Source of the DNA: a virus
Taxonomy: Duplodnaviria; Heunggongvirae; Uroviricota; Caudoviricetes
Length of the DNA: 64,000 nucleotides
IMG/VR virus record: IMGVR_UViG_3300042260_000241
Direction: 5' to 3' (one strand)
The notes beneath the pieces are model-generated. The model was not told where the DNA came from and ran no database searches. It saw nothing but the letters and a program-made list of their open reading frames with translations. The position numbers and the translations under genes were made by a program. This document shows positions 4,872 to 30,629 of this stretch, piece after piece; position 1 is the first letter of the stretch, and each line of letters starts with the position of its first letter.

Positions 4872-4985
4872 TTTGATTGTACAAACTTTTGATAGTACAG
4901 TATAATGTATCTTCAGGATACAAACTATAAAAGAAAACAAAAGTATACAGTTCCCAATAAATCCTAGATGTGTTATAATCTAGGT

Positions 4986-11122: not shown

Positions 11123-11559
11123 TGTCAAAGTACATTACTGAAATCTTAGAAGAAGTTGATAAAGACCCAAAGTCTTTAGAAAAATATAAAACCAATGCAG
11201 CATTGAAGTTTATCTTTCAATATGCATTTATTCCAGAACAAAAGTTTGATTTGCCCGAAGGCACTCCTCCATTCAAAGAGGATCCAGCACCTCTTGGTAT
11301 GAGTAGAGCAAATTTTGTAATGGAGACTAAAAAGCTTTATATTTTCACAAAACAAAAAGAATTAAACAAAGTTCGTAAAGAACATTTGTTTATTCAATTG
11401 CTTGAAAATATTCATCCATCTGAGGCTAAACTCCTCATTGCTGTCAAAGATCAGAAGCTAAATAAGCTATATAAGAAAGTCACTGCAGACCTTGCAGCTG
11501 ACTATGGCTTCATTCCAAGACAGAGTAAAAATGAGGAATCAACACCAAAAAAATCTTAA
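11119..11559 (+). CDS. hypothetical protein
   Basis: An ORF with an ATGA overlap to rnh. Confidence 0.4.
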   Translation: MMSKYITEILEEVDKDPKSLEKYKTNAALKFIFQYAFIPEQKFDLPEGTPPFKEDPAPLGMSRANFVMETKKLYIFTKQKELNKVRKEHLFIQLLENIHPSEAKLLIAVKDQKLNKLYKKVTADLAADYGFIPRQSKNEESTPKKS

Positions 11560-11817
11560 GATTATTCTTTCACTCGAGCAACAGGAATTCGCTCACTGGT
11601 TGGCACACTTACCAGATGACGAAATCGACTACGTTGAATGGCTTCTTGAAGAAGTCGACATTGCTCTTGAAAACATGGTCATTGAACAAATTGGATTTGA
11701 CCAAGCGAAAGAAATAATCAGTAAGTATACCATTAATGGAATAGTTGACTAACACAGTCAACTATATACAAAAAATCGTAGATGGTGTATAATTAACCAT
11801 CTTGGAATGATTTTACT

Positions 11818-13092
11818 ATGATTTTAGACATCCTCAAAGAACTTGAAGCAACTTCCTCTCGTTTGGAGAAGGAAGCCATTCTGAAACGTGAAGAAAACAA
11901 CGAACTCTTGAAGCGTGTTTTCTTCTTGGCTTATGATCCATTCACTCAGTTCTATCAACGTAAGATTCCCGAGTATGTAACAGAGTCTATCCCGTGGCAT
12001 ACTCTAGAATCTGCACTGCCTAAGTTGGACGCATTGTCTAAACGAGAAGTAACTGGTAATGCAGCAATCGAATATTTGTCATTGCTTCTTTCAGAAGTTA
12101 GTGAAGACGATGCAAAGGTTATTGAACGTATCATTGCAAAAGATTTAAAATGTGGTGCTTCTGGCTCTACTGCTAACAAAGTTTGGCCGGATTTGATTCA
12201 TGAGTATCCATGTATGTTGTGTACTCCTTCTGATGAGAAGGTGCTGAGTAAATTTAAATTCCCAGCATATGCGCAATTAAAGATGGATGGTATGCGTTTC
12301 AACGCTATAGTTAAAGACGGCAAGTGCGAGTTCCGTAGTCGTAATGGTAAAGAAATTTTACTCCTTGGAAATCTTGAAGAAGAATTTGTTAACATTGCAA
12401 ATGGTCAGAATCTAGTGTTTGATGGTGAGTTGCTTATCAATGATAAGGGTATCATTCTTGATCGTCAGACTGGAAATGGCATCCTAAATAAAGCTGTTAA
12501 GGGTACCATCTCTATCGATGAAGCCCGTAAAGTACATGCAACAATATGGGATGTCATCGATTATGAAACTTTTAAACGAGGTGTTGGAAAACAAGACTAT
12601 CAGACACGTTTTACGTTGCTTGAGAATATGTCGCTTCCGCGTAAGGTACATCTTGTTGAGAGTAAAGTTATGGCAACTCTTGAAGAAGCTCAAAAAATCT
12701 TCGAAGAATACCTTGCACAAGGTCAAGAAGGAATTATCCTAAAAGACATGAGTGGTATTTGGGAAGATAAGCGTGTCAAAACTCAGGTCAAATTCAAAGC
12801 TGAACTTGATTGTGATTTGAAAGTCGTTGGCATTCAACCCGGTACTGGAAAGTACGAAGGAATGGTTGGTGCACTTCTCTGTGAAAGTTCTGATGGCATT
12901 GTCAAAGTTGATGTAGGTTCGGGTTTATCTGATGATGATCGTAAGCGCGATGACTATGTTGGTAAGATTGTAGCAGTAGTTTATAATGCACGTATTAAGA
13001 ACAAACAGGGTGAAGAGTCTTTGTTTCTACCACGTTTAATTGAAGTACGTGAAGATAAGAATGAAGCTGATTCATCTGAAAGAATCAAATGA
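11818..13092 (+). CDS. ATP-dependent DNA ligase (T4 gp30-like)
   Basis: KMDGMR matches the adenylation motif KxDG. There is an OB-domain C-terminus and a promoter at about 11797. Confidence 0.85.
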   Translation: MILDILKELEATSSRLEKEAILKREENNELLKRVFFLAYDPFTQFYQRKIPEYVTESIPWHTLESALPKLDALSKREVTGNAAIEYLSLLLSEVSEDDAKVIERIIAKDLKCGASGSTANKVWPDLIHEYPCMLCTPSDEKVLSKFKFPAYAQLKMDGMRFNAIVKDGKCEFRSRNGKEILLLGNLEEEFVNIANGQNLVFDGELLINDKGIILDRQTGNGILNKAVKGTISIDEARKVHATIWDVIDYETFKRGVGKQDYQTRFTLLENMSLPRKVHLVESKVMATLEEAQKIFEEYLAQGQEGIILKDMSGIWEDKRVKTQVKFKAELDCDLKVVGIQPGTGKYEGMVGALLCESSDGIVKVDVGSGLSDDDRKRDDYVGKIVAVVYNARIKNKQGEESLFLPRLIEVREDKNEADSSERIK

Positions 13093-13313
13093 CAATCCCA
13101 GTTGAACGTACTAACGCAGTTGTTTATACTCGTGAGTTTCTATTATCTTTATTGGATCCTAAAGAAACTCCACGTATACCAAAAGCAATACGTAAACAAG
13201 CATTACGTCTTCTTAGGCACTATCCATCGAAATTCGAAATGGACATAATTGCAAATAGAGAAGACGGTGATGAAGAAATTCCATTGATGAAAATATTTGG
13301 CAAAAATATGTAA
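13089..13313 (+). CDS. hypothetical protein
   Basis: An ORF overlapping the ligase stop codon. Confidence 0.4.
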   Translation: MTIPVERTNAVVYTREFLLSLLDPKETPRIPKAIRKQALRLLRHYPSKFEMDIIANREDGDEEIPLMKIFGKNM

Positions 13314-13521
13314 ATATTTTTAAAATATATCATAAATCACACATAAAACGTATATATATTATATCAACAAATAAAGAGGCATCAATGCATTTCTGTATAT
13401 CCACCAGCGTAAAATTAAGCTATGACTTTAATGGTCAGGCAATTGCGCGCCCTCTCACATCAAATGAAGGATGGGACGGGCACAGGGTCTAAGAGAAGTA
13501 GAAATACATACGCACTCACAA

Positions 13522-13556
13522 GGCCCTACTGAAAAGTTAGGGCCTTTTTGTTTGGT
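13522..13556 (+). terminator. rho-independent terminator
   Basis: A GC hairpin (aggccctact...agggcct) followed by TTTTTGTTT. Confidence 0.6.
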
Positions 13557-13700
13557 GGTGTACAATAATTCGTGGATGGTGTATAATACATCCATAGTCT
13601 GGTAAAACAGACAAACACAATCGAAGAAAAATTTTTCAAGATGGTGTACAAAAAATAGTAGATGGTGTATAATCTCTATCTACGCTGGTAAAACAGCAAA
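13557..13700 (+). promoter_or_regulatory. two tandem early-promoter modules upstream of the tRNA cluster
   Basis: Two copies of a ~50-nt module: TGTACAAWAATT-N-GGTGTATAAT followed by a conserved C(T)GGTAAAACAGCAAAC motif. Confidence 0.55.
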
Positions 13701-13736
13701 CGTTCTTTAAAAATTCGTAGAGTATTCGTAATTTGT

Positions 13737-13811
13737 TCCGGTGTGGTGTAATTGGTAACACAACAGACTTTGACTCTGTCGTCCTAGGTTCGAACCCTAG
13801 CACCGGTGCCA
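13737..13811 (+). tRNA. tRNA-Gln(TTG)
   Basis: Hand-folded cloverleaf: anticodon stem acaga/tctgt, loop ctTTGac, T-loop GGTTCGAAC, encoded CCA. Confidence 0.65.
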
Positions 13812-13814
13812 TAT

Positions 13815-13889
13815 AGATTGTAAACTTTGATGGTGAAGTCCTGCCTCTTAAGCAGAGAGAACTCGGTTCGAGTCCGAGACGATCTACCA
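13815..13889 (+). tRNA. tRNA-Lys(CTT) (anticodon assignment tentative)
   Basis: Acceptor agattgt/acgatct, T-arm ctcggTTCGAGTccgag, CCA. The anticodon stem has one mismatch. Confidence 0.45.
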
Positions 13890-13983
13890 TATCGAAATAC
13901 ATTACACGCCTAGTAACTAGCGGTGGTAGCCTAGTGAAGGGTGCTTCTCCTACCAAGAAGTTTATAGTGTATTTCGATATGGT
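13890..13983 (+). ncRNA. long-stem hairpin element (family 2, copy 1)
   Basis: Near-perfect inverted repeats of about 16–19 bp (ATATCGAAATACATTACAC / GTGTATTTCGATAT) flank about 60 nt. The element sits directly between a tRNA CCA end and the next tRNA. Confidence 0.4.
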
Positions 13984-13990
13984 TTTTAAT

Positions 13991-14068
13991 CTGTGTGTAA
14001 TGTCAATCTGGTAGACGGCCTGGTTTGGAACTAGGAGGCTGTAGGTTCAAATCCTACCACGCAGACCA
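13991..14068 (+). tRNA. tRNA-Pro(TGG) (tentative)
   Basis: Acceptor ctgtgtg/cacgcag (one GU pair), anticodon stem cctgg/ctagg, loop ttTGGaa, T-loop TTCAAAT, CCA. Confidence 0.45.
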
Positions 14069-14074
14069 GTTTAT

Positions 14075-14149
14075 ATCGCGTTTGACTTTTGGTGAGGTCC
14101 GTAGGCTTTCAACTTACTCAGACGGGTTCGATTCCCGTACGCGATACCA
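14075..14149 (+). tRNA. tRNA-Glu(TTC)
   Basis: Acceptor atcgcgt/acgcgat, anticodon loop ctTTCaa, T-arm acgggTTCGATTcccgt, CCA. Confidence 0.55.
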
Positions 14150-14155
14150 GTTTTT

Positions 14156-14230
14156 GGGGGCAGTAGAGGGCTACGGCGGTGGCTTGCAACTTCCGCGACT
14201 AGATGGGTTCGATACCCACGGCTTCCACCA
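14156..14230 (+). tRNA. tRNA-Ala(TGC)-like, degenerate (possible pseudogene)
   Basis: It shares the gggggca acceptor with the Ala tRNA at 17569. The anticodon loop ctTGCaa sits in a 7-bp stem with a U-U mismatch, the D-arm is abnormal, and CCA is encoded. Confidence 0.35.
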
Positions 14231-14352
14231 AGTTTTAGGATACATGCAGCAAATATAACATAATTGTTATGTAGTTGGTTCGATCCCAACATTTTCCGCC
14301 ATTTTGGAAAATTAGCTCATTTGGTAGAGCAAACAAAAAGTGTATCCTGTTG
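14231..14352 (+). ncRNA. YrlA/Y-RNA-like element A (terminal covarying stem plus a permuted tRNA-like module)
   Basis: Terminal stem AGGATAC...GTATCCT. Internal order: ttgtt – variable – T-arm (gttggTTCGATCccaac) – attttcc g cc – loop – ggaaaat – D-arm (tagctcatttggtagagc) – aacaa. This is a tRNA-like domain in which the acceptor is closed by a loop and the anticodon stem is replaced by the terminal stem. Confidence 0.5.
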
Positions 14353-14358
14353 TTTAAT

Positions 14359-14452
14359 AGTGACGTGGGTGAGAGGCTTAAACCACCTTCCTGCTAAGAA
14401 GACGATCCAGCAAAAACTGGGTCCGAGGGTTCGAATCCCTCCGTCACTGCCA
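14359..14452 (+). tRNA. tRNA-Ser(GCT)
   Basis: Type II, long variable arm. Anticodon loop ctGCTaa, T-arm gagggTTCGAATccctc, CCA. Confidence 0.65.
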
Positions 14453-14459
14453 ATTTTAT

Positions 14460-14554
14460 GCCTGTATAGTTTAATGGTAGAACTCCGAGCTTATACCTCG
14501 GCATCGGCGCCAGATTAGCGCACAGTCTAGGTTCGAATCCTAGTGCAGGTACCA
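14460..14554 (+). tRNA. atypical type-II-like tRNA (anticodon loop cuUAUac?), 95 nt
   Basis: Acceptor gcctgta/tgcaggt, perfect anticodon stem ccgag/ctcgg, 26-nt variable region, T-arm ctaggTTCGAATcctag, CCA. Identity undetermined. Confidence 0.35.
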
Positions 14555-14576
14555 CTTTATAATGAAAGGAAGCGAT

Positions 14577-15140
14577 ATGCCTAGTGTATTTTTAGTAAGT
14601 GATACGCACTTCGGCCACGCTGGTGTATGCCGCTTCATGAGAAAAGACGGCACCACTAAGTTGAGGCCGTGGGATGATCCAGATGAAATGGATGAAGAAA
14701 TGGTTAGACGCTGGAACGAAACTGTTCGTCCCGGCGACAAGGTTTATCACCTTGGCGATGTAGTCATCAACCGTAAGGCGCTGAAGACACTCTATCGTCT
14801 CAATGGTGATAAAGTTTTGATTAAAGGTAATCACGACATCTTTAGACCAGAGGATTATGCTCCTCACTTTAGAGATGTTCGAGCATACCATGTAATGAAT
14901 GGAATGATTTTAAGTCATATTCCAGTACATCCTGATGCTCTTTATAGATTTGGATGTAACATTCATGGTCACTTGCATGATGGAAGAGTTATGATGCAAC
15001 CTGTAGGAAAGTATGGAACAGAAGTAGTTGATCCAAGATACTTTAGTGCATGTGTTGAACAACATGATTTTCGTCCTGTATTGTTTGAAGATGTCGTTAA
15101 ACAAGTTAAAGAACAGGGTGGTGTTATAGGCTTTAAGTAA
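14577..15140 (+). CDS. calcineurin-like metallophosphoesterase
   Basis: SDTHFGH, HLGDVV and GNHD motifs. The gene is embedded in the tRNA cluster. Confidence 0.7.
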   Translation: MPSVFLVSDTHFGHAGVCRFMRKDGTTKLRPWDDPDEMDEEMVRRWNETVRPGDKVYHLGDVVINRKALKTLYRLNGDKVLIKGNHDIFRPEDYAPHFRDVRAYHVMNGMILSHIPVHPDALYRFGCNIHGHLHDGRVMMQPVGKYGTEVVDPRYFSACVEQHDFRPVLFEDVVKQVKEQGGVIGFK

Positions 15141-15147
15141 TTAAGTT

Positions 15148-15224
15148 GCGCCTATAGCTCAGTTGGTCAGAGCAGTGGACTCATAATCCATTGGTCCTAG
15201 GTTCAAGTCCTAGTGGGCGCACCA
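15148..15224 (+). tRNA. tRNA-Met(CAT)
   Basis: Acceptor gcgccta/tgggcgc, D-arm tagctcagttggtcagagc, anticodon loop ctCATaa, T-loop TTCAAGT, CCA. Confidence 0.7.
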
Positions 15225-15257
15225 TACATATTTGGAGATACATTTGTAGGAGTAATC

Positions 15258-15818
15258 ATGTCACACGTTTTAGCACTTGATGCATCGGGCTTACCACGTA
15301 AGTGGATCAATTACGAAGATGCCATCACATATTTCGCAAAGGGAATGGTTGTCTGGTCACTAGGTGATACAGTAGCTACTTTCCGTGGCGGAGTGCAAAA
15401 TGATGGTGTACTTTCTGTTATTGAAACTCCTTCGATCATTGCAGTAAAAGGCAAAGGTTTTAACTTAGAAAAGGCCGGAAAGGTAGTACTTTCTAACCGT
15501 ACTTTGTTTGCTCGTGATAAGCACGTATGTGCTTACTGTGGCGGATCGTTCTCTAATGGACAACTTTCTCGTGATCATGTACATCCTGTTTCACGTGGAG
15601 GCGAAAACACTTGGATGAATTGTGTTACTGCATGTATAAAGTGTAATACTTCAAAAGGTGCACGTACCCCAAAAGAATTCGGTCACGAACTTCTGTACGT
15701 TCCTTATGAACCTAATCACTTCGAAAATATGATTCTGCAAAACCGGCACATCCGAGCAGATCAAATGGAGTACTTAATCGGTGGTGTTCCAAAACACTCT
15801 CGTGTACTTCTTAACTAA
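15258..15818 (+). CDS. HNH homing endonuclease
   Basis: HVHPVSRGGENTWMNCVTACIKCN is an HNH motif. The gene is free-standing between tRNA genes. Confidence 0.8.
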   Translation: MSHVLALDASGLPRKWINYEDAITYFAKGMVVWSLGDTVATFRGGVQNDGVLSVIETPSIIAVKGKGFNLEKAGKVVLSNRTLFARDKHVCAYCGGSFSNGQLSRDHVHPVSRGGENTWMNCVTACIKCNTSKGARTPKEFGHELLYVPYEPNHFENMILQNRHIRADQMEYLIGGVPKHSRVLLN

Positions 15819-15821
15819 TAT

Positions 15822-15899
15822 GTACGGGTGGCAGAGAGGCCCAATGCAAGAGTCTGCAAAACTCTAAAACCGTCGGTTCGAATCCGACTCCGTACTCCA
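15822..15899 (+). tRNA. tRNA-Cys(GCA)
   Basis: Anticodon stem agagt/actct, loop ctGCAaa, T-arm gtcggTTCGAATccgac, CCA. Confidence 0.65.
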
Positions 15900-16067
15900 G
15901 ACTGACGATTTCGGCTTGAAAAGCCCTTATAAATCAACAACTTATGAGGCTAAAATGCATACGTATGCATCCTGAGGGTGGATACCTTCTTCAAGCTGAT
16001 TTCGTTCATCCTGATGCATTCTGGATGAAAATTGTATACTAAAGGTTACAGTGTAACAATGCATAAA

Positions 16068-16200
16068 ATAGTGTACAATAATTGCTGGTTGGTGTATAAT
16101 CTATCCATACGCTGCTAAAACAGCAAAGGAATATTGTAGATCATAGCGGTGTACAATAATTCATGGATGGTTTATAATCTATCCATACGCTCTTTAACAA
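16068..16200 (+). promoter_or_regulatory. two further copies of the tRNA-cluster promoter module
   Basis: TGTACAATAATT-N-GGTGTATAAT / GGTTTATAAT followed by ATCCATACGCTG-N-AAAACAGCAAA. The module is near-identical to the copies at 13557–13700. Confidence 0.5.
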
Positions 16201-16228
16201 ATTGATCACATATAAATTGCCGGGAGGC

Positions 16229-16317
16229 AATCACTATATGTAAGTGTACTAGAATGCGCCATGACGGTCGAGGAATTTATTCCCACCACGCAGGAAGACA
16301 TAAGTACACTTACATAT
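16229..16317 (+). ncRNA. long-stem hairpin element (family 2, copy 2)
   Basis: Perfect 15-bp inverted repeat ATATGTAAGTGTACT / AGTACACTTACATAT flanking about 52 nt. It sits immediately 5' of tRNA-Glu. Confidence 0.4.
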
Positions 16318-16321
16318 AGAT

Positions 16322-16397
16322 GCACCGTTCGTCTATCGGTTTAGGACACCAGCCTTTCACGTTGGTAAGATGGGTTCGATTCCCATACGGTGTACCA
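16322..16397 (+). tRNA. tRNA-Glu(TTC) (second copy; assignment tentative)
   Basis: Anticodon stem ccagc/gttgg, loop ctTTCac, T-arm atgggTTCGATTcccat, CCA. Confidence 0.5.
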
Positions 16398-16404
16398 GAT
16401 TTCT

Positions 16405-16479
16405 GGTCTCAAAGTGTTCATGGACGCACGCGACACTGTCACTGTCGAAGAAGGGGATCGTTACCCCTTGGGACCGCCA
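16405..16479 (+). tRNA. tRNA-Asp(GTC)
   Basis: Anticodon stem cgaca/tgtcg, loop ctGTCac, unusual T-loop ATCGTTA, CCA. Confidence 0.65.
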
Positions 16480-16485
16480 AGTTTT

Positions 16486-16560
16486 GCCGGATTAGCACAG
16501 CGGTAGTGCAATCGCCTTGTAAGCGATAGGTCGTCTGTTCGAACCAGACATCCGGCACCA
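16486..16560 (+). tRNA. tRNA-Thr(TGT)
   Basis: D-arm tagcacagcggtagtgc, anticodon stem atcgc/gcgat, loop ctTGTaa, T-arm gtctgTTCGAACcagac, CCA. Confidence 0.65.
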
Positions 16561-16688
16561 AGACACTACGCCTCGCAGCGGTGTCAATCTCAACATAGGG
16601 TTGAGCGTGTATAGTTCGGGTCTACGCCAGTAGGTCTTTTCGGTCACCACGTAGAGTGACGGCTAAAGTTCGTAATGCCACAAATTTT

Positions 16689-16762
16689 GCCCGGTTAGCT
16701 CAAAAGTAGAGCATACGACTGATAATCGTAAGACAGAGGAGCGTTACCTCTACCGGGTACCA
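16689..16762 (+). tRNA. tRNA-Ile(GAT)
   Basis: Anticodon stem tacga/tcgta, loop ctGATaa, CCA. Confidence 0.65.
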
Positions 16763-16768
16763 AAACAT

Positions 16769-16853
16769 GGAGGTGCCGCCGTAATGGTATGGCAGGAGAC
16801 TGTAAATCTTCCGACTTAGGTCACAATAGGTTCGATCCCTATCACCTCCACCA
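16769..16853 (+). tRNA. tRNA-Tyr(GTA)
   Basis: Type II. Anticodon loop ctGTAaa, long variable arm, T-arm aggTTCGATCcct, CCA. Confidence 0.65.
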
Positions 16854-16861
16854 AGTTTAAT

Positions 16862-16941
16862 GGACTTCTGGTATTAGCAGGGAAGTACGCCGTGGGATTA
16901 ATCCTTCGGAGGCGTTGGTTCAATTCCAACGAAGTCCACCA
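16862..16941 (+). tRNA. tRNA-like, anticodon undetermined (contains the GGATTAATCC palindrome; possibly Leu-type or a pseudogene)
   Basis: Good acceptor (ggacttc/gaagtcc), T-arm gttggTTCAATTccaac and CCA, but I could not find a canonical anticodon stem. Confidence 0.35.
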
Positions 16942-16981
16942 AGTTTACATTATATCGCATTTGTGGTATAATAAAGAATAT

Positions 16982-17057
16982 TCCGAAGTAGCACAGAGGT
17001 AGTTGCAGCGCACTGTTAATGCGCCTGTCGTAGGTTCGATCCCTACCTTCGGAGCCA
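16982..17057 (+). tRNA. tRNA-Asn(GTT)
   Basis: Anticodon stem gcgca/tgcgc, loop ctGTTaa, T-arm gtaggTTCGATCcctac, CCA. Confidence 0.7.
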
Positions 17058-17127
17058 AGTTTTAGAGTAGGTTCAGCAAATAAAAAGCATTCAACTTGTA
17101 ATTGAAAACGCAAAAACTACTCTGTTG
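17058..17127 (+). ncRNA. Y-RNA-like element B (reduced member)
   Basis: agtttt-AGAGTAG-gTTCAGCAAa ... aaaaa-CTACTCT-gtt, with an internal anticodon-arm-like hairpin ttcaa-cttgtaa-ttgaa. Confidence 0.45.
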
Positions 17128-17132
17128 TATTT

Positions 17133-17216
17133 GCCTAGGTGGTGGAATGGTATACACTCTGGTCTTAGAAGCCAGCGCCGCGAGGATTGAGAGTTCGAGT
17201 CTCTCCCTAGGCACCA
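17133..17216 (+). tRNA. tRNA-Leu(TAG)
   Basis: Type II. Anticodon stem ctggt/gccag, loop ctTAGaa, T-arm gagagTTCGAGTctctc, CCA. Confidence 0.7.
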
Positions 17217-17568
17217 TGTTTTGTAAGTGTCAGCAAGAGAAAGTCACGCTGGTCAACATTCTTCGAAGGTGTTGGTCAGTAGAAGGTAGCGGGTTCGATC
17301 CCCGTCCGATCGGAAGATCGGAATACAGTTGGAGTATCGTCTGGACTATTATCCCGAGTGACGTACCGAGTCCCGGCCGGCTTAATTACACGGGTGAATG
17401 GTGTCTATAACGATGGGGACACTACTTACAAATTCAATACTCGCCTTGACTGATGGCGTAGAGAAGGATAAATTGTCAGTCATCTTTTTAAAGCGTACTG
17501 CTGAAGTTGGTTCAGTTAGATAGGGAGATCCAATTGCCTATATCGTTAGTATGCTTTAAAAAGATTTT

Positions 17569-17643
17569 GGGGGCATGGCGTAATTGGGAACGCAGTAGCT
17601 TTGCAAGCTTCAGTTCGGGGTTCGATTCCCCGTGCTTCCACCA
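17569..17643 (+). tRNA. tRNA-Ala(TGC)
   Basis: Acceptor gggggca/tgcttcc, D-arm gcgtaattgggaacgc, anticodon loop ttTGCaa, T-arm cggggTTCGATTccccg, CCA. Confidence 0.6.
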
Positions 17644-17904
17644 AGAATACTAAGACAATACTCGGTACTGTGAGTAGATGGAAACCGACCCATGCGAGAC
17701 TGCGTGGGCTTCAATTACGCAGGCATTGGTAATTCTGTGCAGGTCAGATTGACGATGCGAAAGTAAGTCGGTCCAGTAGGGTCAGGAAAAGTATTGTCGG
17801 CGGAAAAAGCTGCCGGACGTCAGAAGTTAGATTCATACACATCGGTATCCATGGACCCGGTGGCAATTTGTTTCTAACGCCGTGTATACGTACAAGATTT
17901 TTAT

Positions 17905-17981
17905 GCCCCGTTAACTCAGTGGATTAGAGTACTAGGCTACGAACTTAGGAGTCGGGCGTTCGAATCGCTCACGGGGTGCCA
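17905..17981 (+). tRNA. tRNA-Arg(ACG)
   Basis: Anticodon stem ctagg/cttag, loop ctACGaa, T-loop TTCGAAT, CCA. Confidence 0.65.
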
Positions 17982-17987
17982 AACAAT

Positions 17988-18063
17988 GCCAATATAGCTC
18001 AGATGGTAGAGCAGCGGACTGAAAATTCGTGTGTCGGTGGTTCAATTCCACCTATTGGCACCA
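17988..18063 (+). tRNA. tRNA-Phe(GAA)
   Basis: D-arm tagctcagatggtagagc, anticodon loop ctGAAaa, T-arm ggtggTTCAATTccacc, CCA. Confidence 0.7.
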
Positions 18064-18067
18064 ATAT

Positions 18068-18150
18068 GCACATGTGGCGGAATTGGTATACGCGCATGGT
18101 TGAGGTCCATGTCCTTCGGGTTGAGAGTTCGAGTCTCTCCTTGTGCACCA
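18068..18150 (+). tRNA. tRNA-Leu(GAG)
   Basis: Type II. Anticodon stem catgg/ccatg, loop ttGAGgt, T-arm gagagTTCGAGTctctc, CCA. Confidence 0.6.
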
Positions 18151-18156
18151 AGTTTA

Positions 18157-18230
18157 CGCGGGTAGGGTGGTCACCACTGCAGTCTCATAAGCTCGCAGCA
18201 TCGGCGGTTCGAATCCGTCACCCGCATCCA
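18157..18230 (+). tRNA. degenerate tRNA-like with a CAT anticodon loop (ctCATaa) and a weak anticodon stem
   Basis: T-arm ggcggTTCGAATccgtc, acceptor 3' strand plus CCA, but only 3 bp in the anticodon stem. Confidence 0.3.
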
Positions 18231-18296
18231 GTTTTAGGATCCATTCAGCAATCTTAAAAATTTCACTGTTAATGAAACCAAAAGAGGATCCTGTTA
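18230..18296 (+). ncRNA. Y-RNA-like element C (reduced member)
   Basis: gtttt-AGGATCC-aTTCAGCAAt ... aaaaga-GGATCCT-gtt, with an internal hairpin tttca-ctgttaa-tgaaa. Confidence 0.45.
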
Positions 18297-18301
18297 TTTT
18301 T

Positions 18302-18376
18302 GGTGATATAGCATAGACGGATATGCAGGGCTCTCATAAGGCTCACAGGAAGGATCGTTACCTTCTATCACCACCA
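18302..18376 (+). tRNA. tRNA-Met/Ile2(CAT)
   Basis: Acceptor ggtgata/tatcacc, anticodon loop ctCATaa, T-loop ATCGTTA, CCA. Confidence 0.6.
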
Positions 18377-18391
18377 TATATAGAATATCAT

Positions 18392-18468
18392 CGGAGTGTA
18401 GCACAGCCTGGTAGTGCGCTTGCTTTGGGAGCAAGAGGTCCAAGGTTCGAATCCTTGTACTCCGACCA
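18392..18468 (+). tRNA. tRNA-Pro(TGG)
   Basis: D-arm gcacagcctggtagtgc (Pro-like), anticodon stem cttgc/gcaag, loop ttTGGga, T-arm caaggTTCGAATccttg, CCA. Confidence 0.7.
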
Positions 18469-18476
18469 AATTTAGG

Positions 18477-18749
18477 ATGAATATGATTGTTAACCCTTTG
18501 AAAAAGAATGTTCTGGTTGCAGAACGTAATCGTGAAAACACAACTGCCAGTGGAATAGTAGTACAAGGCGTTGAAGGTCTTGGTGAATCCAAGTCTGCTA
18601 AAGTTCTTGCGATTGGGCCAGACGTCACTGAAGTAAAAGTTGGTGATACTGTTTATCTCATGTGGAATAAAGCAAAGCTTGTTAAAGTCGATGGTGCACA
18701 ACGTGCTATCGTCGCTGAAGAAGACATTGTTGCTGTTTTAGAAGATTAA
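18477..18749 (+). CDS. co-chaperonin GroES-like protein (functional analogue of T4 gp31)
   Basis: MNMIVNPLKKNVLVAERNRENTTASGIVV...VKVGDTVYL...VDGAQRAIVAEEDIVAVLED follows the GroES/Cpn10 sequence pattern. Confidence 0.7.
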   Translation: MNMIVNPLKKNVLVAERNRENTTASGIVVQGVEGLGESKSAKVLAIGPDVTEVKVGDTVYLMWNKAKLVKVDGAQRAIVAEEDIVAVLED

Positions 18750-18751
18750 TT

Positions 18752-18827
18752 GCTGCTATAGCTCTAGTGGTAGAGCGCTTCCTTGGTAAGGAAGAGGTCA
18801 CTGGTTCGAATCCAGTTAGCAGCACCA
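18752..18827 (+). tRNA. tRNA-Thr(GGT)
   Basis: D-arm tagctctagtggtagagc, anticodon stem cttcc/ggaag, loop ttGGTaa, CCA. Confidence 0.7.
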
Positions 18828-18842
18828 TTCCAGGAGTTTTAT

Positions 18843-19031
18843 ATGAAAATGAGTGATGGCGGCAAGGGAAGTTCTCCTCGTCCTTATTCTGTAGATAAAG
18901 ATACATACGCATCTAATTGGGATGCTATCTTTGGTAAAAAGAAAAAAGAAGATAATACTGGTGTACAAAAAACCGAGTATTATGATATAATTTCTACTGA
19001 AGATTGCTTAACTGATAAAGACAAACAATAA
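18843..19031 (+). CDS. hypothetical protein
   Basis: A 62-aa ORF between tRNA genes. Confidence 0.35.
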   Translation: MKMSDGGKGSSPRPYSVDKDTYASNWDAIFGKKKKEDNTGVQKTEYYDIISTEDCLTDKDKQ

Positions 19032-19038
19032 AGATATT

Positions 19039-19121
19039 GCCCGAGTGGTGGAATGGTAGACACAGCAGACTTAAAATCTGCCGCCTTGTGCGTACCGGTT
19101 CGAGTCCGGTCTCGGGTACCA
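19039..19121 (+). tRNA. tRNA-Leu(TAA)
   Basis: Type II. Anticodon stem gcaga/tctgc, loop ctTAAaa, T-arm accggTTCGAGTccggt, CCA. Confidence 0.7.
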
Positions 19122-19173
19122 ATATAATTTGCATTGGTAGCACGTCGATGTATAAATAAAGATAGGAGGCACT

Positions 19174-19779
19174 ATGCATTTTATCATTTATAAGACTACT
19201 CACGTTCAATCAGGCAAATATTATATTGGGATGCATTCAACTTCTGATTTAGAAGATGGCTATCTCGGTAGTGGAAAATGGATAAAAGCTGCCGTGAAAA
19301 AGCACGGCAGAGACTCATTTGAAAGAGTAATTCTCAAAGAGCTATCATCATACGATGATATGAAGAATGAAGAAGCTAAAGTAATCAATGAAGAAGTTCT
19401 CAATGATCCGTTATGCATGAATATGATGCATGGTGGAAAAGGCGGCTGGAAAACATTGAATGATTCTGATTCTGCATATCAAAGACGAAGTGAAGCTGGT
19501 AAAAAAGCACACGAAGTTCATAAGCATTTAGTGAATAATCTTCAAAGAGGAAGTAATCAAAAGACTGTTTCTACGTTAAAAGAAAAATACGGCAATGATC
19601 ATTTTGCAAAATTAGGCAAAATGAAAAATGTAACAGATGAATACCGATCAAAATTAAGTAAAGCTCAATGCGGTATGAAAATGATAAACAATGGTAAAAT
19701 AAACACCTTTGTGAAAAAAGAAGAATTGAATGAATACTTATCTAAAGGATGGGTATTAGGAAGAATTAGATCTCAGTAA
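19174..19779 (+). CDS. GIY-YIG homing endonuclease (SegB-like, free-standing in the tRNA cluster)
   Basis: FIIYKTTHVQSGKYYIGMH ... YLGSG is a canonical GIY-YIG motif. T4 segB occupies the equivalent position in the T4 tRNA region. Confidence 0.8.
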   Translation: MHFIIYKTTHVQSGKYYIGMHSTSDLEDGYLGSGKWIKAAVKKHGRDSFERVILKELSSYDDMKNEEAKVINEEVLNDPLCMNMMHGGKGGWKTLNDSDSAYQRRSEAGKKAHEVHKHLVNNLQRGSNQKTVSTLKEKYGNDHFAKLGKMKNVTDEYRSKLSKAQCGMKMINNGKINTFVKKEELNEYLSKGWVLGRIRSQ

Positions 19780-19957
19780 GATAACAGCAGTCGTCGGGTC
19801 TCCAAAACCCTGAAGTGTTGGTGCAACTCCAGCCTGGGATGCCAAATAAAAGTTGTGTCGACGACTAATCTCGGTGCTCCCGTTCTCCCGAGTTAAAATG
19901 ACTGTTTGTGGTTCTCCCCTGACGAGATAAAGCAAAAAGTAAGACGGGGCCAAATAT

Positions 19958-20048
19958 GGAAACGTGGCAGAGTTGGTCTATTGCTCCAGCCTTGAAAACT
20001 GGCGACTCTTAATCGGGTCCGTGAGTTCGAATCTCACCGTTTCCGCCA
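19958..20048 (+). tRNA. tRNA-Ser(TGA)
   Basis: Type II. Acceptor ggaaacg/cgtttcc, anticodon loop ctTGAaa, T-arm gtgagTTCGAATctcac, CCA. Confidence 0.6.
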
Positions 20049-20054
20049 AAATTA

Positions 20055-20144
20055 CGAGGGTTGCCAGAGAGGCCTATTGGCGCATCTTGGAAAGGTGATG
20101 GTTGCGAAAGCGGCACGAGAGTTCGAATCTCTCACCCTCGGCCA
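20055..20144 (+). tRNA. type II tRNA, probably Ser(GGA) (anticodon loop irregular)
   Basis: Acceptor cgagggt/accctcg, long variable arm, T-arm gagagTTCGAATctctc, CCA. Confidence 0.4.
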
Positions 20145-20149
20145 ATTTT

Positions 20150-20229
20150 GTGTGTTTCGTATAAATGTTTAGGGCATCATTACATGAGGGTAAAACCTCC
20201 GGATGTGGGTTCGAATCCCACAACACACA
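20150..20229 (+). tRNA. atypical tRNA-like element without encoded CCA
   Basis: Perfect 7-bp acceptor (gtgtgtt/aacacac) and T-arm gtgggTTCGAATcccac, but the D and anticodon region is aberrant. Confidence 0.3.
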
Positions 20230-20231
20230 AT

Positions 20232-20319
20232 GGAAGATTAAACAGACTGGGTCTGTAACTGTTTCGAAAACAGATTGATCGCTTATGCGGTTGCAGTTCG
20301 ATTCTGCAGTCTTCCTCCA
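20232..20319 (+). tRNA. tRNA-Ser(CGA)
   Basis: Type II. Anticodon loop ttCGAaa, T-arm tgcagTTCGATTctgca, CCA. Confidence 0.55.
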
Positions 20320-20325
20320 ATAAGA

Positions 20326-21471
20326 TTAGAGAATATCAAATTCTGGATATATTGTTTTATATGATGTATTTGCAATTATATCAAATTGTTCTAAAAATTC
20401 TTTAGCACTATCCCAATTTGGGGTATCATATTCTAATAATTCTAATGCAGTTTGAATCAGAACCTGACTTCCTTCTATTTTAGAAGGATTTTTAAAGTTT
20501 TTTAATTTTTCTTTATAAATGTTTTTAACACTCTTTGGTAAATTACTAACTTGAAGAATATTGTCAAGTACTGGACTACTCATAATATGAGTAAACGCAA
20601 TACCAGTTATGCTCATTATTTCTTCTAATGTGGTTATGAGTTCTGGGATATATCCTACGTTTAAAAGACTTATAGTAGAATTTACACCATAGGAAAAATT
20701 TTTATTATTAGAAATATTATCGATGATGTTATTTAAGTCACAACCATGACGTATATAATCATTCACTATCTTATTGCCATCGATACTGAGATTTAATTGG
20801 ATCTTGCAATTTAACTCATTTAGAATAGCAATGATATTTTTATTTGGTTTAGTATAATTTGTAGAAAATGTTATTAGTCGCAATTGCGTTGATTCTTGTT
20901 TAATTAAATTAATTAAGTCTAAACAATCCGAATCTATGAGAGGTTCTCCTCCAGAAATAGTGATAGACACTACTTCTTTGAATGAACCTTTAAGCTTATC
21001 TATGTCAAAGCGATTATTTACTTCAGTAAAATTATATAGATTTTTTAAAAATATACTTTTCTTAGAAAGTTCTCCTAGTTTTGAACTAGAATATGGCGAA
21101 CACATTCTACATGCAAGATTACATGTATTTTTAAGAGATATATTAAATACTTTTGGAAAAGAGTTTGAATTTAGATCAACTGAAATGCCGTATTTAGTAA
21201 AGTCTTTATTCTTAAAAGAACGATATGAAAAAGTTGTATCAGGAACATTGCATGCTTCACAATTATGATTAATAGTATTGGAGATAATGTTTTTTCTTAA
21301 TGATTTAAACTCATCATCAGTCCATATCTTTATAAAAGATTCGACTGGACCTTCAAGTTTTTTATATTTGCAACATGGCGCAATAGTATTATTTTGAAGA
21401 TTTAGTTGAGCATGAAGCCAAGGTACTGCACATCGATTTCCATTTTCAATTAGATCATCTGTAGTTTTCAT
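20326..21471 (-). CDS. radical SAM domain protein
   Basis: CNLACRMC matches the CxxxCxxC radical SAM cluster motif and ITISGGEPLI is a SAM-binding motif. GC content is much lower than in the surrounding sequence, and the gene is on the opposite strand. Confidence 0.7.
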   Translation of the reverse strand: MKTTDDLIENGNRCAVPWLHAQLNLQNNTIAPCCKYKKLEGPVESFIKIWTDDEFKSLRKNIISNTINHNCEACNVPDTTFSYRSFKNKDFTKYGISVDLNSNSFPKVFNISLKNTCNLACRMCSPYSSSKLGELSKKSIFLKNLYNFTEVNNRFDIDKLKGSFKEVVSITISGGEPLIDSDCLDLINLIKQESTQLRLITFSTNYTKPNKNIIAILNELNCKIQLNLSIDGNKIVNDYIRHGCDLNNIIDNISNNKNFSYGVNSTISLLNVGYIPELITTLEEIMSITGIAFTHIMSSPVLDNILQVSNLPKSVKNIYKEKLKNFKNPSKIEGSQVLIQTALELLEYDTPNWDSAKEFLEQFDIIANTSYKTIYPEFDIL

Positions 21472-21520
21472 AAAATAAAAAAAAAAAAAAAATAAGTATA
21501 TAACATTATATATAGATCAT

Positions 21521-21595
21521 GCGGGCATGGTGCTAGTGGTAACACATAACTTTGCCAAAGTTAAGTTGCGGGTTCAATTCCCGCTGCCCGCTCCA
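21521..21595 (+). tRNA. tRNA-Gly(GCC)
   Basis: Anticodon stem taact/agtta, loop ttGCCaa, T-arm gcgggTTCAATTcccgc, CCA. Confidence 0.7.
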
Positions 21596-21608
21596 TTTAG
21601 GATTATGT

Positions 21609-21764
21609 ATGAACGAGTTAAATGAACACGGTGTTCCACTACATGCATGCAATGAGTATAGACATGATGAACATTGGTGGACATGGGCAAAATGGATTAC
21701 ACAAAATTGTAAAAGACTTGGTTCAGATGGACTGAACGTATATTACCAAAAGCCTGTACAATAA
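21609..21764 (+). CDS. hypothetical small protein
   Basis: A 51-aa ORF following the tRNA. Confidence 0.3.
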   Translation: MNELNEHGVPLHACNEYRHDEHWWTWAKWITQNCKRLGSDGLNVYYQKPVQ

Positions 21765-21789
21765 TTCGTGATTGTGGTATAATATAAGT

Positions 21790-22065
21790 ATGGTAAATGA
21801 TAAAGAACATGAAATTATGTCAATCACTCAGGAAGAATGTTCCGAAGTGATTCAAGCAATTAGCAAGATCAATCGATTTGGTTTTGATGGACGACATCCT
21901 GAAAAGACTTACAATAATCGTGAACATCTTGAGGAAGAAGTAGGAGACGTCTTAGCAATGATTGATCTTCTACTTGAGAATGAGATTGTGTCTTGGGCTA
22001 ATGTGAACAAGGCACGTAGAGCAAAGTTTGAGAAGCTCCGTCAATGGAGCACTATCATGGACTAA
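21790..22065 (+). CDS. MazG-like NTP pyrophosphohydrolase (small)
   Basis: EEVGDVL matches the MazG EExxE/D motif. An early promoter TATAAT lies at about 21776. Confidence 0.45.
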   Translation: MVNDKEHEIMSITQEECSEVIQAISKINRFGFDGRHPEKTYNNREHLEEEVGDVLAMIDLLLENEIVSWANVNKARRAKFEKLRQWSTIMD

Positions 22066-22070
22066 ATAAT

Positions 22071-22144
22071 GCGGGATTGGTATAGGGGTTGTGCCCTAGT
22101 CTTCCAAACTAGAGAGACCGGTTCGAGCCCGGTATCCCGCTCCA
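22071..22144 (+). tRNA. tRNA-Gly(TCC)
   Basis: Anticodon stem ctagt/actag, loop ctTCCaa, T-arm accggTTCGAGCccggt, CCA. Confidence 0.65.
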
Positions 22145-22168
22145 TTTAACTTTAACCAGGAGAAAGCA

Positions 22169-22300
22169 ATGAAACGAAAACTGATCGTCAAGCAGCGTAA
22201 CCGCTTCGTTGCTTTGGCACAATTCCGAAAAGCGGGAGTGCATCGCAAAACTAATAAAGCTTTGCGTAAATCACTCAACCAAGCTATTTTGGAAGTGTAA
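22169..22300 (+). CDS. small basic protein (possible bS21-like ribosomal protein fragment)
   Basis: A 43-aa ORF with a strong AGGAG Shine-Dalgarno sequence. FVALAQFRKAGV resembles the S21 FDVALRRFKRSCEKAGV segment. Confidence 0.3.
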   Translation: MKRKLIVKQRNRFVALAQFRKAGVHRKTNKALRKSLNQAILEV

Positions 22301-22366
22301 CTCAAAGGCTAGAGTACCCGGCTTTTAACCGGATAGTTGTGGGTTCGAGTCCCACCACTTCTACCA
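22291..22366 (+). tRNA. tRNA-Lys(TTT)
   Basis: Anticodon stem ccgg/ccgg, loop ctTTTaa, T-arm gtgggTTCGAGTcccac, CCA. Confidence 0.65.
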
Positions 22367-22510
22367 TATAGTTAAGTACATTTTGTCACTATCGTATGGG
22401 TAAGCCCATCAATCTCCCCTCAACACCGGAGTCGCGCTCGGTTCGTAGGGATCGGAATGGATTGAAATAGCTACCAGGCCTGACAACTTGGGAAATGTAC
22501 TTAACTATAT
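22367..22510 (+). ncRNA. long-stem hairpin element (family 2, copy 3)
   Basis: 17-bp inverted repeat TATAGTTAAGTACATTT / AAATGTACTTAACTATA flanking about 108 nt. It lies between the tRNA-Lys CCA and tRNA-His. Confidence 0.4.
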
Positions 22511-22587
22511 GGTGACTATAGTGTAAAGGTTCAGCACCTCGCTCTGTGAAAGCGATAGAATGGGATCGTTCCCCATTAGTTACCCCA
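22511..22587 (+). tRNA. tRNA-His(GTG)
   Basis: An extra G-1 opposite a C discriminator, anticodon stem tcgct/agcga, loop ctGTGaa, CCA. Confidence 0.7.
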
Positions 22588-22594
22588 TGAATAT

Positions 22595-22670
22595 GGATCC
22601 TTAGCTCAGCGGTACGAGCAACTCCCTTACAAGGAGAAGGTCATAGGTTCAATCCCTATAGGATCCACCA
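22595..22670 (+). tRNA. tRNA-Val(TAC)
   Basis: D-arm tagctcagcggtacgagc, anticodon loop ctTACaa, T-arm ataggTTCAATCcctat, CCA. Confidence 0.7.
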
Positions 22671-22778
22671 AGTTATAGGATAGGTTCAGCAAACCATAAC
22701 GCATGCGAATGGATCGCAATTTGACTTCTAATCAAACCTTGGGGGTTCAATTCCCTCTGCAAAACAACTATCCTGTTG
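22671..22778 (+). ncRNA. Y-RNA-like element D (tRNA-like member with T-arm)
   Basis: agttat-AGGATAG-gTTCAGCAAa ... aaaacaa-CTATCCT-gtt. Internally it has an anticodon-arm-like hairpin tttga-cttctaa-tcaaa and a T-arm gggggTTCAATTccctc. Confidence 0.5.
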
Positions 22779-22800
22779 AATACGAATACTCTACGAATTC

Positions 22801-22926
22801 GGAGATGTGATGTAATGGTAGCATAGCATAGCAAAAAACCAATTCTGTAAAGAATTGTTCCAGCATATTCTAAGCTCAACTTTGTAAAAGTTCTTGTCCG
22901 TGGTTCGAATCCCGGCATCTCCACCA
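22801..22926 (+). tRNA. tRNA-like gene with a ~50-nt internal insertion (two tgtaaa-loop hairpins)
   Basis: Perfect acceptor ggagatg/catctcc, D-arm, T-arm and CCA, but about 126 nt long. Confidence 0.35.
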
Positions 22927-22931
22927 ATTTC

Positions 22932-23006
22932 ATCTCTGTAGCTCAAAGGTAGAGCGCTGCTTTGACATAGCAGATACGGCGGATCGTTACCGTCCAGAGG
23001 TACCAT
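22932..23006 (+). tRNA. tRNA-Val(GAC)
   Basis: Anticodon stem ctgct/agcag, loop ttGACat, T-loop ATCGTTA, CCA. Confidence 0.6.
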
Positions 23007-23007
23007 G

Positions 23008-23085
23008 CGCTTGTGACGAAAACTGGTAAACGTGCTTGTCTCAAACACAAGATTTTGAGGGTTCGACTCCCTCCGAGCGCACCAG
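23008..23085 (+). tRNA. tRNA with anticodon CAA and a short variable arm (identity uncertain)
   Basis: Acceptor gcgcttg/cgagcgc, anticodon stem cttgt/acaag, loop ctCAAac, T-arm gagggTTCGACTccctc, CCA. Confidence 0.5.
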
Positions 23086-30581: not shown

Positions 30582-30629
30582 TTCGTCAATTTGTTATAAT
30601 TAATCATCAACTAAAGTAAGGAGCTTACT

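Follow-up and report, generated by a model that had tools for sequence, protein, structure and literature searches.

In the 64,000-nt stretch of viral DNA analysed here (IMG/VR virus record IMGVR_UViG_3300042260_000241, Caudoviricetes; the whole stretch is called the window), long hairpins lie among transfer RNA (tRNA) genes, and the question they raise is whether they are signals for processing the tRNA precursor, mobile DNA, or small RNAs in their own right. ARAGORN called 32 tRNA genes on the + strand, from 13737 to 23084, and a transfer-messenger RNA (tmRNA) gene near 62.7 kb. The original prediction had described three hairpins in the tRNA array; all three were recovered with a repeat finder and passed the fold test, with small corrections to their coordinates: the stems start 3-4 nt earlier than first drawn, and copies 1 and 3 take in the upstream ACCA. 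A scan of the window for the arm motif together with pairing returned exactly five hairpins, all on the + strand, against 0.215 expected from 200 dinucleotide shuffles, four of them in the tRNA array and one inside the tmRNA gene, so that two copies (17482-17565 and 62778-62865) have to be added to the three. The five hairpins, with stems of 17-23 pairs, and the two lysine tRNA genes whose 3′ ends enter them are as follows.

13886-13983, + strand: copy 1, arms 13886-13904 and 13965-13983, enclosing a 60-nt head (13905-13964)
16234-16319, + strand: copy 2, arms 16234-16250 and 16303-16319, 17 perfect base pairs, 52-nt head
17482-17565, + strand: copy 4, arms 17482-17500 and 17547-17565, 46-nt head
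22362-22514, + strand: copy 3, arms 22362-22384 and 22492-22514, head of 107-109 nt
62778-62865, + strand: fifth member, hairpin of the tmRNA intervening sequence, CAAAAGCACAUA (62778-62789) pairing with UGUGUGCUUUUG (62854-62865)
13815-13889, + strand: tRNA-Lys(CUU), whose 3′ ACCA is the base of copy 1
22291-22366, + strand: tRNA-Lys(UUU), whose 3′ ACCA is the base of copy 3

The stem of copy 1 has 19 pairs, 18 Watson-Crick and one U·G, with 16 perfect in a row; its 5′ arm, ACCAUAUCGAAAUACAUUA, opens with the four nucleotides of the ACCA end of tRNA-Lys(CUU), and a 7-nt spacer separates its 3′ side from tRNA-Pro(UGG), which starts at 13991, so that this copy does not directly abut the next tRNA. 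Copy 3 is closed by 21 perfect Watson-Crick pairs (22363-22383 with 22493-22513), or by 23 pairs with two flanking U·G; its 5′ arm takes in the (U)ACCA end of tRNA-Lys(UUU), and its 3′ arm overlaps G-1, G+1, and U+2 of tRNA-His(GUG). The stem of copy 4 combines 17 Watson-Crick pairs with two G·U pairs, and is reported by the repeat finder as 17482-17499 and 17548-17565. Promoter-like sites precede copies 2 and 4, each of which stands directly before the first tRNA of a presumed transcription unit. Copy 2 occupies a leader position behind the promoter-like sites at 16072-16100 and 16150-16178, with tRNA-Cys 335 nt upstream and tRNA-Glu(UUC) beginning at 16322, 2 nt after the stem; the claim that each hairpin exactly fills the gap from a CCA end to the following tRNA therefore fails for this copy, which has no tRNA on its 5′ side. 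Copy 4 starts at the transcription start predicted from the promoter-like site at 17446-17474, and tRNA-Ala(UGC) begins at 17569. Short U runs follow copies 1 and 4. The folds of the array hairpins were far better than those of shuffled sequences (z = -4.2 to -5.4; 0 of 200 shuffles as good), and folding copies 1 and 3 in context gave a cloverleaf-hairpin-cloverleaf arrangement with zero unpaired bases between the acceptor stem and the hairpin.

Comparison with related phage tRNA clusters showed that the inverted repeats are kept in relatives, with compensatory changes. Direct orthologues of copies 1, 2, and 4 were taken from L082, a contig syntenic with window positions 10017-18049 at 75-94% identity; since L082 ends short of copy 3, the near-identical relative L017 was used for that copy. 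In L082, the stem of copy 1 is retained with one compensatory change from C-G to U-A, and its head is wholly replaced. The head core of copy 2 is identical in L082, and its inner stem carries four double compensatory changes (GUGUAC/GUACAC versus ACACAU/GUGUGU). Copy 4 is 94% identical to its L082 counterpart and shows a U-A to C-G covariation within the head, which is also kept in L040 and L044, there at a different junction. The head of copy 3 differs from that of L017 at five positions, three of them in predicted pairs where pairing is kept, including a U-A to C-G double change in an AUGGG/CCCAU hairpin and a G·U to A-U change. Within the window, the heads of the five copies are mutually unrelated and no two copies share one. 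As no match to the heads was found elsewhere in the window or in the related loci outside the homologous hairpins, an origin of the heads as captured sequence was rejected for the sequences compared.

No cultured close relative was found, and near and distant DNA searches of the phage isolate collection matched tRNAs only. Relatives were collected as 80 viral loci fetched through the conserved Ro-like DUF2828 protein encoded at 24747-26183, most of which contain tRNA arrays rich in hairpins of the same type. Together with the window, these loci yielded 93 distinct stems no more than 12 nt from a tRNA, every one on the tRNA strand; neighbouring tRNAs lay on the strand of the element in all 122 cases. 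The arms define a family, as had been proposed: the aligned stems share the consensus (N)ACCAUAU-NN-AARYRYAYU with the partner YAGUGUGUUUNNAUAUGGU. The core is thus CCAUAU-NN-AARYRYAYU, which replaces the ATAT...GTAC(A)T read from three copies. The stems are nearly or fully uninterrupted duplexes, 18-22 bp long in 73 of 95. A second, independent sample came from a pattern search with no selection on any protein and comprised 101 viral loci, 86 of them with at least five tRNAs. The same pattern gave 13 matches in 596 Gb of bacterial and archaeal genomes, only two of which were true members, both on phage-like tRNA-array contigs binned into metagenome-assembled genomes. The family thus extends over hundreds of uncultivated T4-like phage contigs and is almost absent from cellular genomes. 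Stem sequences seem more alike within one genome (L065, L009).

The hairpins were matched by no Rfam family, either with the whole window at the gathering threshold or with the array at E-values up to 10, and tRNA (RF00005) gave no match inside the four array hairpins. The hairpin family was likewise unmatched in nine related loci and two head-rich regions; the only Rfam matches in the searched regions were to tRNA, tmRNA, YrlA (one weak match, elsewhere), and one tRNA-like head of L065. We found no description of the family in Rfam 15 or in the literature. A covariance model built from loop-less stems of relatives (A6, R1) recovered no true member; with real loops of 46-109 nt, longer than the model can span, this says nothing about the family.

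Among the 51 elements with an upstream tRNA, 45 have a stem that begins inside NCCA, and in 33 of these 45 the UGG partner lies outside any downstream tRNA; the CCA end therefore has a dedicated partner. A tRNA starts no more than 12 nt past the stem end, typically 0-8 nt, in 71 of the 93 elements, so the most constant feature is the ribonuclease (RNase) P site just 3′ of the element. The hairpins thus sit where processing of the tRNA precursor must cut, as the original prediction had supposed. Hairpins are not general to such spacers, however: related arrays have about 980 tRNA-tRNA spacers, of which 373 measure at most 10 nt and are hairpin-free. Comparison of filled and empty junctions revealed no target-site duplication (a TA could be hidden within the palindromic ATAT), and the ACC...GGU flanks of the element are complementary, not direct repeats.

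The same arrangement recurs in the tmRNA gene of the window (62667-63039, + strand), which is permuted and encodes a two-piece tmRNA (beta_tmRNA, 161 bits; tmRNA_permuted, 146 bits). A hairpin of the family type makes up its intervening sequence (62780-62867), with its first bases in the CCA that ends the acceptor piece and its last base 2 nt short of the GGGG that opens the coding piece; the insert measures 76 nt, versus 17 in the Rfam beta_tmRNA model. By membership, only 62780-62867 lies in a true tmRNA intervening position; the four array copies take the analogous CCA-to-5′-end or leader position, but between different RNAs. In a set of phage tmRNAs from a direct tmRNA pattern search, 42 of 67 distinct two-piece intervening sequences of 50-80 nt carried the core motifs at both ends, in the form CCACCA/AAAGCAYAYU...RURUGCUUUUGAU/GGGG; a protein encoded beside the tmRNA, used as query, retrieved only distant loci without tmRNAs. 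Enzymes of tRNA processing cut the transcripts of permuted tmRNA genes, and the mature RNA lacks the intervening sequence (PMC11915505). Similar two-piece tmRNAs occur on at least 100 other IMG/VR contigs, and the intervening sequence in L111 contains an intact tRNA. The tag peptide of the window tmRNA is ANDEVYALAA, and the tmRNA is of betaproteobacterial type, which hints at a betaproteobacterial host.

Selection on the stems was assessed by extending them with an equal penalty for every non-Watson-Crick pair. In stems adjoining tRNAs, the non-Watson-Crick positions comprised 81 G·U, 15 A·C, and 22 others, versus 36 G·U, 30 A·C, and 87 others in hairpins far from tRNAs; the independent sample gave 126 G·U versus 40 A·C. 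As a G·U on one strand is an A·C on the other, this asymmetry indicates that selection acts on the sense transcript. Both sides had changed in 16 of 20 stem pairs, and the covariation score was 0.464, versus 0.185 in shuffles and no more than 0.139 with the partners slid. Three A-U pairs, at alignment columns 12, 13, and 18, were invariant, a hint of sequence-specific recognition by a nuclease or protein. Taken together, the hairpin family is real and conserved, and acts at the RNA level on the tRNA strand.

The heads behave differently from the stems. The 219 heads fell into 143 similarity clusters, and had a GC content of 47%, versus 30% for the stems. At orthologous junctions, defined by the same flanking tRNAs (flanks 77-100% and arms 75-100% identical), head identity was bimodal, either at least 0.94 or at most 0.62, which indicates replacement, not drift. 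Of the 21 clusters with more than one member, eight occupied different junctions. Heads were also shared between tmRNA and tRNA contexts at 93-100% identity: one was common to the tmRNAs of L138, L167, and L199 and to the arrays of L028 (100% over 33 nt) and L009, another to the tmRNAs of L156, L181, and L118 and to L065 plus others (97%), and a third to the tmRNA of L166 and to L280 and L273. In such sharing the inner part of the stem moves with the head, and the outer part fits the local CCA and leader. Two words typical of tRNA were enriched across unrelated heads, the T-loop word GGTTCGA (8 observed versus 0.34 expected) and the D-loop word TGGTAGC (5 versus 0.35). One head of L065 (3295-3389, within the unit 3286-3397) passed the Rfam tRNA threshold with 31.4 bits, with the stem as a closed acceptor stem. 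That particular heads are conserved across contexts with compensatory changes favours a function for at least some of them.

The locus L065 holds about ten family hairpins in about 2 kb (2156-4159). Three are directly adjacent with 9-11-nt linkers, the remainder are interspersed with degenerate tRNA-like pieces and one open reading frame (ORF), and two units have identical heads. A reading of this cluster as a CRISPR-like array was rejected, as its repeats are inverted and its 'spacers', of 41-95 nt, are structured.

We lean towards the explanation that the hairpins are excisable stem-loop cassettes, housed in parts of stable-RNA precursors that are removed anyway, and that processing of the tRNA ends would free them as stem-capped small RNAs. 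This rests on the family membership, the selection on the sense strand, the pairing with CCA, the position before RNase P sites, the replacement of heads, and the sharing of heads between tmRNA and tRNA contexts; the choice of nucleases, the stability of the product, and the role of the heads are inferred. The hairpins occupy tRNA-tRNA spacers, leaders that run from a promoter to the first tRNA, and the intervening sequence of two-piece tmRNAs. The 3′ trailer of the upstream RNA, from NCCA on, pairs with the 5′ leader of the downstream tRNA to form an AU-rich handle of about 20 bp, closing a variable head of 30-200 nt. The 3′ end of the cassette would be set where host RNase P cuts to make the 5′ end of the tRNA or tmRNA piece that follows. 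For the 5′ end there are two options: an RNase E- or Z-type cut at or 1 nt after the CCA, for which CCAU/AUU fits the RN/WUU rule, or an RNase III cut within the two-turn duplex. RNase E is known to remove hairpins set directly after the CCA in Escherichia coli proline tRNAs (PMC5291269), and RNase III is a plausible candidate by the size of the stem. Once freed, the cassette would resist exonucleases by virtue of its stem cap, and the flanking tRNAs would mature normally. The handle would thereby serve as a shared module for biogenesis and stability, and probably supplies the homology for exchange of heads by recombination; the heads may be diverse payloads, some tRNA-like and some under structural selection.

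Several observations weigh against this cassette explanation. A perfect duplex that contains the CCA should resist RNase E, which needs single-stranded RNA, and most tRNA junctions in these arrays have no hairpin at all. On average the heads are barely more structured than shuffled sequences (mean z = -0.48), and the four array heads of the window are not significantly structured alone (z = -0.81 to +1.06), so that many heads could be functionless passengers. The invariant A-U pairs, finally, are left unexplained by a purely structural role of the stem.

A more specific form of the cassette explanation is that these are interchangeable small-RNA cassettes particular to phages, in which the CCA-pairing handle of about 20 bp exploits host tRNA and tmRNA processing, homology between handles swaps the heads, and the heads make up a fast-evolving library of effectors; we offer this tentatively, as doubtful in its full extent. 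If it were true, the effector heads might act as decoys for tRNA-targeting nucleases, imitate the tRNA elbow, or partner the Ro-like protein. It is usual to treat a phage tRNA array as a list of tRNAs, and here the spacers hold a large modular family of structured RNAs that connects tRNA-operon spacers with two-piece tmRNA intervening sequences, which are normally treated apart. The family makes testable the release of non-tRNA RNAs from tRNA polycistrons, the length of phage tmRNA intervening sequences, and the use of tRNA-processing enzymes by phages for making small-RNA effectors, and its hundreds of natural variants with compensatory changes are a data set for finding the enzyme that recognises the handle.

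The best surviving alternative, though an unlikely one, is that the hairpins are purely RNase III processing signals, with a duplex that only separates neighbouring tRNAs and a loop that is a meaningless spacer. At 18-22 bp the stems span about two turns of helix, classically the least that RNase III needs, the duplexes are perfect or G·U-tolerant and lie on the transcribed strand, and RNase III acts on comparable stems around rRNAs and on 23S rRNA intervening sequences (PMC6582327, PMC4990558). The hairpin-free short spacers described above are, however, evidence that tRNAs are separated without a hairpin. As most junctions lack one, the element is dispensable for tRNA maturation, which argues against a pure processing signal and leaves functional small RNAs or tolerated selfish inserts. 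The conservation of some heads with compensatory changes, and the near-identity of heads across tmRNA and tRNA contexts, are also unexpected if the loop is a mere spacer, and no RNase III gene was found among the 27 window ORFs scanned. The proposal that the hairpins are signals for processing the tRNA polycistron thus survives as to position, and a role as mere signals is unlikely.

It is improbable that the hairpins are selfish DNA elements, resembling intervening sequences or miniature inverted-repeat transposable elements (MITEs), whose inverted repeats are recombination or transposition ends and whose RNA fold only makes the insertion tolerable. Presence and absence do vary at orthologous junctions, heads are replaced, and a given head can recur at other junctions and in tmRNA as well as tRNA contexts; the crowding of units in L065, with its duplicated head, and the likeness of stems within L065 and L009 also suit such elements, and the 23S rRNA intervening sequences are regarded as selfish (PMC4990558). 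Against this, neither a target-site duplication nor a transposase was found, no head is shared within the window, every copy is in the tRNA-strand orientation, the elements are restricted to CCA-proximal spacers, and the asymmetry between G·U and A·C would not be expected for the ends of double-stranded DNA. The hairpins share terminal inverted repeats with MITEs, but have no target-site duplications and no near-identical copies in two orientations, and the earlier view that they do not follow the MITE pattern holds.

Still less credence is due to the idea that the hairpins are Y-RNA-like ligands of the product of the Ro-like gene at 24747-26183, with the stem as protein-binding site and the head as effector module. 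A conserved stem with a variable loop is the signature of Y RNAs, and the hairpins have both. The gene lies 2.2 kb downstream of copy 3 (2.2-10.9 kb from the hairpins), and the invariant A-U pairs of the stem suggest sequence-specific recognition. Ro, on the other hand, binds a bulged helix in the terminal stem of Y RNA, and the hairpin stems are continuous and bulge-free. None of the four array hairpins matched the Rfam YrlA family (RF02553) at E-values up to 10. Some heads carry T-loop and D-loop motifs of tRNA, as YrlA does (PMC4201824). Co-occurrence with the Ro-like gene is uninformative because the related loci were selected through that gene, and in Synechococcus phage BUCT-ZZ01, the closest isolate with a Ro-like gene, the 25-kb region examined contains tRNAs but no 5′-arm motif of the family. 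The gene (+ strand) encodes a protein with DUF2828 and DUF7788, assigned to phrog_850 ('RNA-binding protein'), with 710 records in the phage collection, and it adjoins a tRNA array in all 80 loci, which were fetched via that gene. From its domains the protein is possibly Ro60/TROVE-like; a sequence search against solved structures gave no match to it and no link to Ro60.

That the hairpins are chance inverted repeats or intrinsic terminators can be dismissed, the U runs after copies 1 and 4 notwithstanding, given the excess of motif hairpins over shuffles, their conservation with covariation, a terminator scan that lists none of the five sites, tRNA genes that follow directly in the same transcription units, and stems averaging 30% GC around loops of 46-109 nt, on which the intrinsic terminator was rejected. 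For a retron, no reverse transcriptase turned up among the same 27 ORFs, with most window ORFs outside that scan.

The window contains further sequence features, listed here before they are described.

13559-13587: promoter-like module
13645-13673: promoter-like module
16072-16100: promoter-like module
16150-16178: promoter-like module
18962-18991: promoter-like module
21755-21783: promoter-like module
14237-14359: AGGAU...UUCAGCAA...AUCCUG element
17064-17127: AGGAU...UUCAGCAA...AUCCUG element
18235-18295: AGGAU...UUCAGCAA...AUCCUG element
22676-22786: AGGAU...UUCAGCAA...AUCCUG element
14074-14146: tRNA-like sequence uncalled by ARAGORN
14157-14230: tRNA-like sequence uncalled by ARAGORN
16862-16939: tRNA-like sequence uncalled by ARAGORN
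18158-18232: tRNA-like sequence uncalled by ARAGORN
20150-20229: tRNA-like sequence uncalled by ARAGORN
22701-22761: tRNA-like sequence uncalled by ARAGORN
22801-22926: tRNA-like sequence uncalled by ARAGORN

The promoter-like module, TGTACA-17/18-TATAAT, lies inside longer conserved repeats (GGTGTACAATAATTCnTGGATGGTGTATAAT), and tandem pairs precede tRNA blocks. The AGGAUnn...nnAUCCUG elements form an inter-tRNA family, common throughout the related loci, in which a short terminal stem goes with a conserved (G)UUCAGCAA box; they are probably the first family that the original prediction implies in calling the hairpins a second one. One of them, at 14246-14359, gave a sub-threshold YrlA match (34.2 bits, E = 2e-4, versus a gathering score of 69), and a reading as Y RNA would fit these elements, a set distinct from the long-stem hairpins. 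The uncalled tRNA-like sequences, several of which end in CCA, scored for example 39.7 bits with the tRNA-Sec model and 34.6 and 31.9 bits with the tRNA model, and could represent degenerate tRNAs or non-canonical ones. A structured RNA of about 215 nt at 17222-17440 (+ strand), with the closing stem GUAAGUG...CUACUUAC and a T-arm-like GGGUUCGAUCCCC inside, is kept in L082, L007, L044, and L067 and gave a very weak YrlA match (18.6 bits). Unusually for an isoleucine tRNA, the 95-nt tRNA-Ile(UAU) at 14460-14554 (+ strand) carries a long variable arm, and its place beside tRNA-Ser(GCU) is conserved in several relatives. Neither an ORF nor an Rfam match was found in the + strand spacers at 16561-16688 (128 nt) and 17644-17904 (261 nt), to which no element could be assigned. 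Palindromic AUCAAAU...AUUUGAU hairpins between ORFs, at 3653-3689 and 4846-4877, were the best false matches of the stem model and may be small terminators or regulatory hairpins.

Three protein genes are embedded in the tRNA array, at 15213-15818 (+), 19174-19779 (+), and 20326-21471 (-); the array-embedded products include an HNH endonuclease, a SegE-like GIY-YIG endonuclease, and, on the opposite strand, a radical SAM protein. A phosphoesterase gene (14562-15140) and a gene for a GroES-like co-chaperonin (18414-18749) also lie in the array. The window as a whole is T4-like, with genes for ribonucleotide reductase, T4-type RNase H, DNA ligase, and the SegE-like endonuclease. A pair of genes for nicotinamide adenine dinucleotide salvage at 29604-32030 (+ strand), encoding a cytidylyltransferase-like (NadM/NadR-type) plus NUDIX protein and a nicotinamide phosphoribosyltransferase, stands in the order with respect to the Ro-like gene that is also found in BUCT-ZZ01.

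The closest known elements are the intervening sequences of permuted tmRNAs and those excised from 23S rRNA by RNase III; for the combination of a conserved handle with swappable heads, no description was found in the literature. Like the permuted tmRNA intervening sequence, the array hairpins lie between an encoded 3′-CCA and a 5′ end processed as in tRNA, with a hairpin closing on the acceptor stem, but they are flanked by two different tRNAs, or by a promoter leader and a tRNA. With the 23S rRNA intervening sequences of helix 25 and helix 45 they share the form of a long stem-loop insertion in a stable-RNA precursor. The latter are excised by RNase III without religation, occur sporadically, and are regarded as selfish or as having an unknown function (PMC4990558, PMC2801512); unlike the hairpins, they lie in rRNA helices and have no sequence relationship to this family, which is phage-borne and confined to CCA-proximal spacers. 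The RNase III stems of rRNA operons and of the T7 early region resemble the hairpins in placing two turns of double-stranded RNA around an RNA to be released (PMC6582327), whereas the phage stem is conserved in sequence, includes the CCA of a tRNA, encloses a small variable RNA, and is a candidate substrate. The likeness to species 1 and 2 of T4 (rnaC and rnaD), raised in the original prediction, is one of position, as these are non-tRNA RNAs co-transcribed with the tRNA cluster of a T4-type phage. They fold as tRNA-like chimeras, in which short terminal stems go with a T-arm and a CCA-like end and no 17-23-bp terminal duplex forms; their folds led us to reject them as structural relatives, and they stand closer to the pseudo-tRNAs and Y-like RNAs of the window. 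Bacterial MITEs such as the Correia elements of Neisseria resemble the phage hairpins in their terminal inverted repeats (about 20 nt) and total length (85-150 nt), and both form hairpins when transcribed. The phage hairpins differ from elements of this type in their single orientation, the G·U bias of the sense strand, and their unrelated interiors. In the TMERs (tRNA-microRNA transcripts) of gammaherpesvirus 68, hairpins lie directly 3′ of a tRNA-like structure (PMC4337559). The biogenesis proposed here follows the logic of these and of E. coli 3′ETS-leuZ and MALAT1-mascRNA: RNase P, Z, or E is recruited by a neighbouring tRNA and thereby sets where the adjoining non-tRNA RNA ends. Those organisms and RNAs are unrelated, however, and the phage hairpins pair with the CCA itself and swap heads. 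Other non-coding RNAs, ROOL and GOLLD among them, also cluster near the tRNA islands of phages (PMC12286853). The hairpins thus belong to the theme of excised spacers and intervening sequences, with an unusual modular architecture.

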